Below, in pieces: positions 58,201 through 64,000 of a stretch of DNA of 64,000 nt; positions within the stretch are counted from its first letter, which is position 1, and every line of letters starts with the position of its first letter. Made by a program: the position numbers. The stretch comes from Escherichia coli (GTDB lineage Bacteria > Pseudomonadota > Gammaproteobacteria > Enterobacterales > Enterobacteriaceae), in NCBI RefSeq assembly GCF_041886205.1, contig NZ_CP169029.1; one strand, 5' to 3'.

Positions 58201-61200
58201 CCGGATCAAACTCTTCGCTATTGCAATACTAACCAAAATCATCAATTTGACAGCGATTAACCAGAATAATAGTATACTATCACCAGTAAGAAATTATCGT
58301 TATTTGTAGCGATACATATTATATATATATCATTCTCAGGTGCGTACATGATTATCAACCAGGTACCTATAAAAATAAAAATCTTCATCTTTTTATTTTC
58401 ATGCATCTCTATTATATTTTTGTTACTGCATGAAAATAATGGAATATACATAACACAAACAACACAAATAAGTTATAGTGTTTTCATTATTGGGCTTTTT
58501 TTCATAAACCTGATGATTTTTATTTTTCTATTGCTTTACTATGTTTCTAATCAGAGACAAAGTTATCTCTTAATTCTTTCATTCGCGTTTTTGAGCAACA
58601 CGTATTATTTATTAGAAGTGGCTATTATTTCTTTATCTCCGTTAGGTAACGATTTATCTACAATCTATCAGAAATCAAATGATATCGCAATATATTATCT
58701 ATTCCGTCAGCTCAGCTTTATATCTATAATCTTTCTGGCTGTTTATTCCACCAATGTTAAAAATAAAAGTGTTTTAGAAGATAAAAGAAACATAATAATT
58801 GTTGTTTTGTCAATATTAATTCTTTTTATTACTCCGTTTGTAGCAAAAAATCTAAGCAGTGACAATATAAAATATAGTCTTAATATTATACAATACTCGC
58901 TGAATCGTCATTTGCCGACGTGGAATATCGTGTACACCAAAATAATATCAGTATTTTGGCTTGTATTACTTATCAGCTCATGCATCAGCATACGTAATTA
59001 CTCAAAAATATGGTTGTGTATAATACTTATTAGTATAGTGTCAGTATGCAATAATCTAATTTTATTGTATTTTATTGATAAATCCCATCCTGCATGGTAC
59101 ATGACAAAATTTCTTGAGTTGATATCAATGATTTATATCATTTCAACACTCATGTATTATGTTTTCAGGAAATTAAATCATGCTAATCATATGGCAATTC
59201 ATGATCCACTAACGAATACATACAATAGAAGATACTTTATTGACTCATTGAAGAATATATCAAAACACCATGATTTCTCAGTAATAATGTTAGATATTGA
59301 CAGTTTCAAAAGCATCAATGACAAATGGGGGCATCATATGGGTGATCAAGTCATAGTAATGGTTACCAGAATAATAAAAAAATCCATCAGGAAAGAGGAT
59401 ATATTAGGGCGCTTAGGCGGTGAGGAGTTCGGTATTATCATTAAAGGTAATACTCAAAAGCTCTTGCTATCAATTGCAGAGCGAATCAGAAAAAACATTG
59501 AAGAGCAATGCTCGGAAAAATTATTATCGCATGGACCTGAGAAAATAACTGTCAGTATTGGTTGCTTTACTTCAAAAGAGAATAATCTCAGCCCATCTGA
59601 AATGTTAGTCAATGCCGATAAAGCGTTATATCAAGCCAAAAGAACCGGAAAAAACAAGGTGATAATTCACTCAAAATAAACACCTTTTTAAAATACAGCC
59701 CCAATAAACTGCAGAATATTATCCCATATAATATCCTGCAGTTCGTAATGCACTATTCGATAATGGGTACTGTTGGCCATTCAATATCCGGTGCAGTTGT
59801 TGTATTAACACGGTTCAGCAACACCCGATATTTTTTCCAGGCTTCCAGCAATGAGGTTTCTTCCTCCGTTGCGATCTCCAGATCTACAGCATCCTGAAGT
59901 GGCGCTATATGCTCACTGGCTACCTGCATCAGGCTGTTTTTTGTTTCTTCCGCCTCCCGGATCCGGAACAGTTTTTCTGCTTCCGTATCCTTCACCCAGG
60001 CTGTGCCGTTCCACTTCTGATATTCCCCTTCCGGCGATAACCAGGTGACATTTTCCGGTAACGAGCCAAGTTCAGAAATAAATAACGCGTCGCCGGAAGC
60101 CACGTCATAGACGGTTTTTCCCCGATGATCTTCAACGAGATGCCACGATGCCTCATCACTGTTGAAAACAGCCACAAAGCCAGCCGGAATATCTGGCGGT
60201 GCAATATCGGTACTGTTTGCTGGCAGACCTGTATGAGGCGGAATATATGCGTCACCTTCACCAATAAATTCATTAGTTCCGGCCAGCAGATTATAAATTT
60301 TTATGGTCCGTGGTTGTTCACTCATTCTGAATGCCATTATGCAAGCCTCACAATATAGTTAAATGCGATGTTTTTGACGGTGTTTTCCGCGTTACCAGCA
60401 GCGTTAACGGTGATGGTGTGTCCATGTGAACCAATCGCAACGGAGTGCGTGTGTGCACCAATACCGACAGTATGTGCGTGTGCACCTGCAGATGCTGCTG
60501 TGCCGGACAGTGAGTGGCTATGGTTACCATCTGTACTGGTATTAGCTAACGCCCCCGTAGACATACCTACTGAGCCTTGTACACCCCAGGTATTTTGACC
60601 TGAGCTTGTATAACCATATTGATAAGTATCTTTAAAAACACTGGGGTTAAATCGACGGCCATCTCTATGGCTGTGATTACCAGCTGCATTCGTGCTGCCA
60701 CTTAAACTATGGGTATGATGCGCACCAGTGTTATTCGTGGATTTAGTGCCGTAATCAAACGACGATGTGGTTTTCGTCCCCAAATCAGTACTGGATGCGC
60801 TGGCGCTGTGGGTATGCGATTTTATGCCGTCCTGTTCCTGAGACAATACGGCACGACCACTGGCGGGCTTGCCCTTAATCGTCCAGCCACGCATAGCTGA
60901 ATGACGTCACCAGCCCCAGTGTGTCCGTAAACTCATAACGGTATTTCACGTTAATCCCGTTCAGATCATCACTGCCGGGGACGTTCGTCGAGGCATGAAG
61001 ATACCCCGCGCTCAGCGTGGACTGATGTTCAGACGCCCATGCAGGCGCACCGGATACGGCCAGACAAATGGCTGCGGACAAAATTGCTGCACAAACTTTA
61101 CGCATAATTACCTCTCGCTTTTCTGCAATAAAAAAGGCGTCATTCCTGACGCCCTTTATTGGGGTTATAAATATTTCAACGAATACTGATGCCGGAAGCG

Positions 61201-64000
61201 GCTTTTTTGGTCACAATCACCGTACAGTCGGTGATATTGCCTGCCCCCTGATTGCCTTTCTGGAAAATCTTAAACTCCAGAGTGACGCTTCCCCTGCCAC
61301 TCGGCATATCAATAACTGCACTGTAACTACCGGGAATGGCCCCTTTAGTTTCTCTGGATGCGATTAATACGCCGTTTTTGCGAACTTCAAAACCATAACC
61401 CGTGTATCGCGTGCCTCCTGGGTTATTTCCGCTCCCCGGATCGTCATACGCTATACCGTTAAAAATAATGGGCGGAATAATAATCTGGCGGTCAAAGTTA
61501 TGATCATCGCTGATGGTGACTGTAACCGTACCGTTTGGTGTTTCCGTGTTACCCCACGTACCGACTTTTTTCGGGAAGGCTTTTGATACAGCTTTAACGA
61601 AATCTCCTCTGACCTGGGTCGCCTCCAGCATGCCCTTAATCGTACAGTTCTGGTTAATCGTGACATTGTTGAGCGTTCCTGAGTTCGCATTCACACTGCC
61701 ACTGATATCCGCATTTTTCGCCGTCAGTCTCCCGTCTGATGTCAGGGAAAATGCCGGAGGATTACCGCCGCTGGTAATGGTGGGGGCCGTCAGGCGTTTC
61801 AGGAACACTTCATTCATGAATATCTGATCGCCCTGACCAACAAACATCGGCTTTGTGTTGCCATTCGCAGGATTAATCATCGCAATCCTGTCTGCTGCCA
61901 GCAGCACCTGACTCTGCATGCCGTCAGGGGTGTTCTCAATACCGGCACCGATACCCGCAATATAAAGGCGTCCGTCCTGCATCTGCTGCAGCTTCACTGC
62001 CCACATGCTGTTCAGGTTATTATTTGTATCAACCTGAACCTTCTGTATCTGCTGGATCGCTGCACTCTGGTCTTCCAGTTTCTTATTGACGGTCTGTGTT
62101 ATTTCATTGCTGACATCCGTTATGGACATCCTGATTTCAGTCAGGTCAGGCGCAAGCTGACCGTTATCAATCTGCGTCCACAGCTCCTGAGCCAGATGGG
62201 TTTTCCCTATCTCGCCTTTGAAAAAATCCAGATAGCCTGATGCATCATCACTCGGCTGACCGACAGCCTCCACGAATGCCGATTTGCCAACGGTGTTCAC
62301 ACTGCGAACGTAAAAATAATAATCATGGCCCGGTTTGATATTGATACTGGCGGCTATCCAGTACAGTGCCGTACCAAGATAACGCGCGCTGGTTTCAACC
62401 TGCCTGATATCCGCAATCCGTTTTTCCGAGAACCAGAACTCAAACTGTACCGTCGGGTCATAAACCGCAAGATGCGGCGTGGCGGTTATCTGAAAATAGC
62501 CCGGCGTCAGCTCAATCCGCGACGGCGCTGCCGGTGCGGCAATCCGGAACGATACCGACGCCGGATCGCCCTGCTGCCCCCACGCATTTACTGCCCGGAC
62601 TGTCAGCCTGTAGTTCCCCAGAGCCAGTTGTGTGAAGCGGTAAGTGGTTTCCGTCGTCCGGGCCGTGCTGACCAGCCGCTCACGGCCGTCATCCGCTGCC
62701 ACGGTCAGGCGAAGCAGGAAGCTCACGCCCTTCACCACCTTCGGCGTGTCCCAGCGCGCCAGCACCTGGTATTCCCCGCTGTCTGCGGTGACTTCTGCGG
62801 TCAGGTGCTGCACCGCTGGCGGCGTGACACCATTTACCGTGCCGCTCTGGTCGCCGTCAAAGTGCGCCCCGTTATCCACGATGGCCTCTTTTTCCGGTAC
62901 ATGCTGCACGGCGGTGATGGCATACGTGCCGTCATCGTTCTCACGGATACTCACGCAGCGGAACAGGCGCTGGCGCAGCGTCGGCAGCTTCAGCCCCCAC
63001 ACGCTGTATTCTGCAACGCCGTCAGGAACACGGCTCACTTTCACCTTCACGCCGTCGGTGACGGACTGGACCTCCACGCTGACCGGATTACCCTGACCGT
63101 CAACCAGGCTTATCAGCGTGGTACCGGAGGATGGCAGCGTGATTTCACGGTCGAGCGTCAGCGTCCGGGTCTGGCTGTTCACCGCCAGCACGCGCCCGCC
63201 GGTGCTGATGCCCGCATAGTCATCATCGCAGATTTCAATGACATCCCCCGGTACATGGCGAAGCCCTTCCGCACCCACGCTGAAGTCCACGGTCTGCGTT
63301 TCCAGCAGTTCCGTTTTAATCAGCCACAGCCCGGCGCGGTGCACCTGCCCCCGGCTGGTACAGCCAAAGGCATCCATCTTCGTGACGTTACGACCGTATC
63401 CGTTGTCTGTGTACGGGGAGTTCTGGCTTTCGGTGCCAGCATCTGCGCCACACCACCGAGCACCATACTGGCACCGAGAGAAAACAGGATGCCGGTCATA
63501 CCACCGGTCCCAATGGCTGCCCCCCATGCTGCAAGGGTGGCTCCGGCGGTAAAGAATGATCCGGCAATGGCGGCAGCCCCCAGGACAATCTGGAATACGC
63601 CACCTGACTTGGCCCCGGCGACTCTGGGAACAATATGAATCACAGCGCCATCAGGCAGAGTCTCATGTAACTGCGCCGTTAACCCGGACGTGCTGACGTC
63701 CCGCCCGGCAATCCGTACCTGATACCAGCCGTCGCTCAGTTTCTGACGAAACGCCGGGAGCTGTGTGGCCCGTGCCCGGATGGCTTCAGCCCCCGTTTTC
63801 ACACGAAGGTCGATGCGGCGACCAAATCGTTGTAAATCCCCGTAAAGGCAGATGCGCGCCATGCCCGGTGACGCCAGAGGGAGTGTGTGCGTCGCTGCCA
63901 TTTGTCGGTGTACCTCTCTCGTTTGCTCAGTTGTTCAGGAATATGGTGCAGCAGCTCGCCGTCGCCGCAGTAAATTGCGGCGTGATTCGGCACTGATGAA

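Follow-up and report, generated by a model that had tools for sequence, protein, structure and literature searches.

Known J proteins and their receptors

The receptor specificity of lambdoid phages lies in J, the tail tip gene. Lambda J (NP_040600.1) binds LamB, and when it is swapped for the tail fibre gene of phage 434, binding is reported to shift from LamB to OmpC, the receptor of 434 (PMC11101478, PMC3509688). Adsorption that depends on OmpC is known from the literature for both 434 and lambda h434. In the structural study loops L1-L4 of the receptor-binding domain (RBD) enter the porin lumen and the signal travels via the central fibre and the shaft, the shaft being residues 809-861 of lambda J (PMC11101478); the text of that paper does not specify which residues the four loops comprise. 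The specificity region of J is an independently recombining module, with four natural indel hotspots at 1012, 1048-49, 1077-78 and 1107 (PMC6646904). There are also engineered chimeras, of which 1A2 recognises only the OmpC of EDL933 and A8 the OmpC of both EDL933 and MG1655 (bioRxiv 10.1101/2022.09.30.509847). The A8 protein (PDB 9wca/9wcb), for which OmpC use has been shown experimentally, shares 122 identities with phage 21 in its last 150 residues.

For phage mEp332, which is important below, the literature searched gave no receptor assignment, and the one qPCR paper on this phage gives none. Nor did that literature yield adsorption data for phages with an RBD identical to the one described here. 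It had nothing relevant on ECOR13 or on other mEp phages, and the BASEL paper (PMC11990801) has nothing relevant on GpJ and OmpC.

The J remnant and its domain layout

The window, by which we mean the whole stretch of 64,000 nucleotides analysed, is from Escherichia coli contig NZ_CP169029.1, and it corresponds to the chromosome of E. coli wlxctx60 with 2 mismatches in 18.5 kb. It includes a minus-strand ORF at 61176-63527, of 783 aa and ending SGISIR, in which the sequence quoted in the preliminary description is indeed present, and that is a remnant of J without the first 425 or so codons, and RefSeq has 61176-63401 as a J pseudogene. The parts of the ORF are as follows.

63399..63527, minus strand: 5' extension that is not J, but I remnant read in a non-I frame
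62253..63398, minus strand: C-terminal part of the J hub and two Ig/FNIII domains (lambda J about 426-807), lambda-like
61803..62252, minus strand: divergent block comprising the alpha-helical shaft and upper central fibre, ORF residues 426-575
61656..61814, minus strand: lower central straight fibre segment, ending NVTI, 92-94% identical to lambda J 930-978
61176..61655, minus strand: J receptor-binding domain, the last 158 or so codons and the stop, a 434-type specificity module

Phage-tail_3, Ig_J, Ig_J_second, Phage_Tail_Tip and Ig_GpJ_C all scored above their Pfam cut-offs and follow the order of lambda J, the first three (Phage-tail_3 being partial) in 62253..63398. This part has 97% amino-acid and 93.6% DNA identity to lambda, and the preliminary description was right that the central part of J is close to lambda, with ORF residues 51-425 being 97% identical to lambda J 433-806. 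However a functional tail tip needs a complete N-terminal hub that begins at a start codon of its own, and this is lacking: the homology to J sets in at lambda residue 426, FNIII-A_GpJ is absent, and of Phage-tail_3 just profile positions 90-162 are left. Given the incomplete hub, the deletion of about 1.5 kb discussed below and the RefSeq pseudogene status, we treat this J as the remnant of a member of the gpJ/TipJ family and not as a working member.

The 783-codon frame is uninterrupted and has its own ATG at 63527, and one could ask if the truncated protein is expressed with a new cellular role, for example in blocking superinfection, or towards anti-phage systems that detect the central fibre of J, which it might trigger or divert as a decoy. 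It does retain the 32-residue segment that triggers HepS, with the counterpart of lambda F924 in it. However its first 43 codons are out-of-frame I remnant with no J homology, the BLASTP alignment beginning at residue 44, and RefSeq has the gene as a pseudogene. Furthermore the exact deleted arrangement is contiguous in only one record among the matches listed, the other listed full-coverage matches being in 3-4 joined pieces over about 11-12.5 kb, which points to undeleted genes and suggests a recent deletion and not a selected form. We consider a new role of this kind very improbable. An I-J fusion protein was also considered for this ORF and rejected, as the remnants of I and J do not share a reading frame and residues 1-43 are encoded by out-of-frame I DNA.

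The receptor-binding domain is of the 434 type

With regard to the C-terminus, the preliminary description had the last 250 or so residues, from NEVFLKRL onward, diverging from the LamB-binding end of lambda J. This holds for the last 158 residues, where the identity to lambda J 980-1131 is 37-39% and there are five indels, but not for the first 50 or so, as the stretch from NEVFLKRL to NVTI is 92-94% identical to lambda. The divergence thus begins about 55 residues later than had been stated, the actual break with lambda being at about ORF residue 625 (nt about 61655, lambda residue about 980). The length was also overstated, as from NEVFL (ORF residue 572, nt 61814 downward) to the end there are 212 residues. 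The lambda-like 50 residues are what one would expect if there were no true difference and the C-terminus were that of lambda, but the low identity and five indels of the last 158 residues are not, and below window position 61622 there is no megablast match to lambda DNA. That reading is refuted by the alignment with the J of NC_001416, and we give it practically no credence.

In contrast to the low identity with lambda, the RBD is identical to that of phage 434 J (UMO75286.1, OL657226) at 153 of 158 positions (97%), over the full length, without gaps and with equal loop lengths. Identity is 100% to mEp332 and 42-43% to phage 21, and BLASTP with the last 158 or 208 aa gave no significant similarity to the J proteins of HK97, N15 and phi80 (E of 0.068 or above); these are the comparisons that had been proposed. 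The domain is still of the same Pfam family as that of lambda, with Ig_GpJ_C on ORF residues 647-782 scoring 89.7 bits (cut-off 26.2) as against 247 bits for lambda. The indels relative to lambda are at lambda residues 1011, 1043, 1078, 1099 and 1109-1114, which is at or near the four hotspots of PMC6646904.

The last 249 aa are 100% identical in 9 phage records among the tblastn matches listed (vB_EcoS-569R4, PhiR34_1, ev243 in two records, Kati, phiSTEC1575-Stx2k, PhiR42_1, PhiR68_2 and mEp332); in phage 434 and lambda h434 the identity is 91%. The best PDB sequence matches of the C-terminus are the gpJ structures 9wca, 8xcj and 8iyk (E = 4e-71 to lambda gpJ), and at the level of sequence the match to solved gpJ structures is unambiguous. 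The A8 chimera is the best of them at 271.7 bits. However the RBDs of A8 and phage 21 are only 42-43% identical to that of the window, and are thus a third RBD type.

Inference of the receptor

The porin for the 434-type domain is OmpC and not LamB, and we think it highly probable that the window RBD, in what is now a dead J, represents the 434 type of the exchangeable specificity module and not the lambda allele, and that the ancestral phage adsorbed to OmpC. The 97% identity to 434 makes OmpC the likely receptor of the window RBD itself. The suggestion in the preliminary description that the original phage had a specificity other than that of lambda for LamB is supported.

J variants can discriminate between OmpC alleles, so the exact range of OmpC alleles, or even the porin used, could differ here. 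The window RBD and 434 differ by five substitutions, N665D, R745G, I754V, Q756H and G761R (ORF numbering, window residue first), and through these the domain, while 434-like, might bind some OmpC alleles only, or have another porin as its receptor, for which OmpF, PhoE and a porin of the NmpC type are examples. Three of the five fall in the stretch that corresponds to lambda 1099-1107 in the alignment, near the hypervariable region, and about four J substitutions are sufficient for lambda to use OmpF, changes at 1012 and 1107 being always required (PMC6646904); the acceptance of different OmpC alleles by A8 and 1A2 is in the same direction. However 153 of the 158 residues are those of 434, and every loop length defined by an indel is equal to that of 434, and we regard a change of receptor as unlikely, OmpC being the preferred assignment.

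In an intact phage three copies of the Ig-like RBD make up the tip of the central fibre, the bottom loops dock in the extracellular mouth of a trimeric porin, and the conserved beta-prism and the helical shaft transmit the binding upward, by which the tail is opened. In the present genome the J domain is idle as a tail part, with about 425 codons missing and the remainder in another frame than the I remnant. At most the J remnant may serve passively as a store from which incoming lambdoid phages could take up a host-range module by recombination.

A second divergent block and the mosaic structure of J

The preliminary description missed a divergent block further upstream, although it is partly inside the segment 61176-62000 that was under discussion. 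ORF residues 426-575 are only 45% identical to lambda and 434, but 97% identical to phage 21 and 99% to mEp332. In comparison with lambda there are 28 extra residues (21 + 7) at lambda 835-838, in the helical shaft, and blastn found no DNA match to lambda or 434 at 61854-62177. The last four codons of the block overlap the lower fibre segment, which is conserved among lambda, 434, 21 and mEp332.

With a 434-type RBD and a phage 21-type shaft block the gene is thus a mosaic in which each module is a known one: hub and FNIII part resemble lambda, the shaft is of the longer phage 21 type, the lower fibre is the conserved one, and the RBD is of the 434 type. Lambda J has the same domain order and belongs to the same family, but its shaft is 28 residues shorter, and its RBD is the one that binds LamB. 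Phage 434 J is 97% identical in hub and FNIII domains, and DNA similarity to 434 (94.9%) extends from window position 61854 to the end of J and on into lom. However the 434 shaft is of the short, lambda type, and the window J is truncated in addition to having the five RBD substitutions.

The J of mEp332 (XSB41055.1, PV340541) has the same combination of modules, with ORF residues 426-783 being 99-100% identical and the DNA 97.7% identical to window 60891-63398. The J genes of mEp332, ev243, Kati, PhiR34_1, PhiR42_1, PhiR68_2, vB_EcoS-569R4 and phiSTEC1575-Stx2k, with C-termini identical to that of the window, are of full length (1165 aa) and belong to viable phages, whereas the window copy is without codons 1-425.

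The decayed prophage

The J remnant is in a decayed lambdoid prophage that occupies the lambda attachment site, with ybhB and bioA as neighbours. A DNA search of the window found the att core of lambda exactly, with 0 mismatches. The relevant features are as follows.

57693..57707, minus strand: lambda att core, at which the prophage ends on the ybhB side
60875..61105, minus strand: lom remnant (N-terminal 72 or so codons) joined to a C-terminal side tail fibre remnant
61131..61160, minus strand: stem-loop GGCGTCA/TGACGCC followed by TTTTTTATTG on the minus strand, as read from the sequence
63393..63398, no strand assigned: I/J deletion joint, about 1.5 kb gone relative to the intact relative (blastn against CH425 L003)

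There is no intact K-I-J-lom-stf-tfa tail module with upstream tail and head genes, and there are two internal deletions. The first was located by blastn against locus L003 of strain CH425, with window 60891-63398 corresponding to L003 9686-12193 and window 63393-64000 to L003 13692-14300. It removed the C-terminus of I and J codons 1-425, and left the two remnants in different frames; RefSeq labels both as pseudogenes. The second, of about 3.3 kb, has its junction between lom and the side tail fibre gene at 60891-60895 (blastn against L003; RefSeq pseudogenes), and the lom remnant covers only positions 1-74 of the 199 of the Pfam Ail_Lom profile. Tail homology ends inside K, at about window position 64077, and in the RefSeq annotation the remainder of the prophage is without head or tail genes. 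The head genes and every tail gene upstream of K have thus been lost.

The stem-loop is likely to be the intrinsic terminator after J, and phage 434 has an annotated terminator in this position, after J. The stem search places the stem on the plus strand.

Distribution and significance

Of 5,426 complete E. coli genomes, 2,112 have DNA for the 434-type RBD and 98 have that for lambda's own type, which makes the textbook lambda allele the unusual one. The 434-type RBD is about twenty times commoner in these genomes than the LamB-type RBD of lambda. The sub-allele in the window is 100% identical in at least 8 sequenced phages, and has at least 99% DNA identity in 564 chromosome records. It is conceivable, but we think improbable, that the five residues N665, R745, I754, Q756 and G761 mark a widespread RBD sub-allele that tracks an OmpC allele group or uses a second porin. 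If so, the RBD and the NmpC/Lc-like porin gene of the same phages would be a matched pair, for use of OmpC and then its replacement.

The 434-type RBD is already known, and being common in E. coli and here situated in a dead gene, it is ordinary. The main value is for annotation, in that the ancestor of the remnant at the lambda attachment site is placed in the OmpC-using (434-type) host-range class, and the window J adds one instance to those already documented in which the specificity region of J was exchanged as a module.

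Modules of the J protein

When lambda J (NC_001416) was aligned to the J remnant, identity differed by segment as follows, with residues numbered along the 783-residue ORF.

61176-63527, minus strand, J ORF
ORF residues 51-425, hub and FNIII part, 97% identity to lambda
ORF residues 426-575, shaft and upper fibre, 45% to lambda, plus 21 and 7 inserted residues at lambda 835-838
ORF residues 576-625, lower central fibre, 92-94% to lambda
ORF residues 626-783, receptor-binding domain (RBD), 37-39% to lambda

The central part of J had been described as lambda-like, and residues 51-425 bear this out. 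The reported divergence of the C-terminus is also real with respect to the RBD, but its boundaries were mis-stated in the preliminary description, and a second divergent block, upstream of the RBD and partly within 61176-62000, was overlooked. The divergence had been placed from NEVFL (ORF residue 572) over roughly 250 residues to the end; the next 50 or so residues match lambda almost completely, divergence sets in after ...SGTLNNVTI at about nt 61655, and the stretch that begins with NEVFL is 212 residues long. GC content within J falls from 60-65% (62500-64000) to 48-52% (61000-62500) in a profile of 500-nt resolution, and the fall comes close to the point where the lambda-like part gives way to the exchangeable shaft and RBD modules (joint at about 62252), lying some 250 nt upstream of it.

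When the last 249 residues of J were compared by tblastn with 50,697 phage records, identity was 100% in nine listed records, those of vB_EcoS-569R4, PhiR34_1, ev243 (two records), Kati, phiSTEC1575-Stx2k, PhiR42_1, PhiR68_2 and mEp332. Several Stx2 phages were 98% identical, and phage 434 and lambda h434 91%. For the RBD itself (last 158 residues) mEp332 is 100% identical and phage 434 is 97% identical (153/158), gap-free and with equal loop lengths, whereas phage 21 is only 42-43% identical. The proposed comparison with lambda, 21, HK97, N15 and phi80 is completed by the last three, whose J proteins had no significant similarity to these 158 residues. ORF residues 647-782 match Pfam Ig_GpJ_C ([quoted passage not shown]) with a score of 89.7 bits, where lambda scores 247, and the top PDB hits by sequence are chains of gpJ (9wca "A8 gpJ 713", 8xcj and 8iyk).

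The shaft block has other relatives: identity is 99% with mEp332 and 97% with phage 21, against only 45% with lambda and 434. Residues 809-861 of lambda J form its alpha-helical shaft (PMC11101478), and the 28 extra residues thus lengthen the shaft. J is therefore a mosaic of known modules, in which the hub and FNIII part is a common one, the shaft is 21-type, the lower fibre is conserved and the RBD is 434-type; mEp332 J has the same combination.

Residue F570 (about 61818-61820) is the equivalent of lambda J F924 and is kept in the conserved fibre segment. F924 falls inside a 32-residue peptide, lambda J 902-933, reported as the trigger of the HepS abortive-infection nuclease (PMC13043305).

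The specificity module and its probable receptor

One study described four natural indel hotspots in lambda J, at 1012, 1048-49, 1077-78 and 1107, and concluded that residues 960-1132 recombine independently as a "specificity module" (PMC6646904). The RBD studied here has indels relative to lambda at lambda residues 1011, 1043, 1078, 1099 and 1109-1114, at or close to the four published hotspots, and is one case of this documented pattern.

The lambda RBD is an Ig-like domain whose four bottom loops enter the extracellular lumen of the LamB trimer. On binding, the RBD bases spread apart, and the change passes via the beta-prism fibre and helical shaft, opening the tail (PMC11101478). By analogy within the family, the loops of this J would have entered a porin, with fibre and shaft relaying the signal for tail opening. 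In two accounts that cite earlier genetics, lambda with the 434 tail fibre gene in place of its J binds OmpC instead, which is the receptor that 434 uses (PMC11101478, PMC3509688). Because the RBD is 97% identical to that of 434 with the same loop lengths, OmpC is most likely the receptor of the ancestral phage. The earlier suggestion of a specificity unlike that of lambda is thus supported, and can be sharpened to 434-type. The five RBD differences from 434 are N665D, R745G, I754V, Q756H and G761R, and a literature search for adsorption results on this exact allele found none.

Engineered J chimeras tell OmpC alleles apart, A8 taking MG1655 and EDL933 OmpC and 1A2 only EDL933 OmpC (bioRxiv 10.1101/2022.09.30.509847). 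The RBD of A8 resembles that of 21 and shares only 42% identity with the one described here, and OmpC can therefore serve different RBD types. Assignment of a receptor from sequence is safe only at high identity, as with 434 here.

The same prophage carries, outside the window, a porin gene with OmpC/OmpD/NmpC-like annotation between Q and the lysis genes (23354-24436 of L002, the locus extending beyond the window). It is 100% identical in PhiR34_1 and PhiR68_2 and 98% in ev243 and ev099, phages that also have an identical or 97%-identical J C-terminus. A probable OmpC-type J together with a replacement porin is reminiscent of phage PA-2 with its Lc porin.

Frequency in E. coli

The RBD allele is a common natural one. 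A search of 5,426 complete E. coli genomes found its DNA (61176-61652) in 2,112 (564 records at least 99% identical, 667 at 95-99% and 877 at 90-95%), whereas the equivalent stretch encoding lambda's own LamB-type RBD was found in 98 of the 5,426, all at least 99% identical; the five lambda matches listed are laboratory strains throughout. Alleles less than about 85% identical would escape megablast; even so, the 434-type and lambda-type frequencies contrast clearly.

Prophage setting and deletions

A lambdoid prophage at the lambda attachment site has its right end here, with the order bioA, ybhB, lambda att core and prophage DNA. The exact att core follows ybhB directly, so the remnant occupies the classical lambda site, with ybhB/bio on one side and the prophage right arm on the other. 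Relative to L003, the locus of strain CH425 in which the genes remain intact, there are two deletions.

57693-57707, exact lambda att core GCTTTTTTATACTAA, 15 bp, immediately after ybhB
58348-59679, plus strand, AT-rich MASE4-GGDEF gene, between att core and tfa
59753-60337, minus strand, tfa
after tfa, C-terminal remnant of the side tail fibre gene (stf)
60891-60895, deletion joint 1, about 3.3 kb lost (stf largely gone, lom without its 3' part), lom' fused to stf'
between the side tail fibre remnant and the J ORF, N-terminal remnant of lom
63393-63398, deletion joint 2, about 1.5 kb lost (I without its C-terminus, J without codons 1-425), I' fused to J'
beyond the J ORF, remnant of I, then the end of K

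Flanking matches overlap by 5-6 bp at both joints. The MASE4-GGDEF diguanylate cyclase gene has 29-34% GC, sits where lambda has its b region and looks like prophage cargo.

Among the 25 matches listed for 57500-64000, only NZ_AP045833.1, the chromosome of E. coli wlxctx60 from Asian black bear faeces in Japan, matches as a single piece, with 2 mismatches across 18,501 compared bases. The other listed records appear to carry an undeleted arm, because their matches span about 11-12.5 kb; the MASE4-GGDEF gene lies under the match in all of them.

The BLASTP alignment with lambda J begins at ORF residue 44 (lambda residue 426), codons 1-43 being I remnant DNA in another frame, and in the RefSeq annotation J, I, lom and stf are all pseudogenes. 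Tail-gene homology ends within K at about 64077, just outside the window, and head and tail genes are absent from the prophage past that point. In this genome the J remnant can therefore play no part in a virion. The C-terminal 93 or so residues of tail protein K are joined to an unrelated N-terminal part (63799-64000 and beyond, L002 18300-19076), and RefSeq names the product "GREB1-related protein". The gene that holds the RBD is dead and lies in a decayed prophage, and the RBD itself is an allele already on record for a known exchangeable module.
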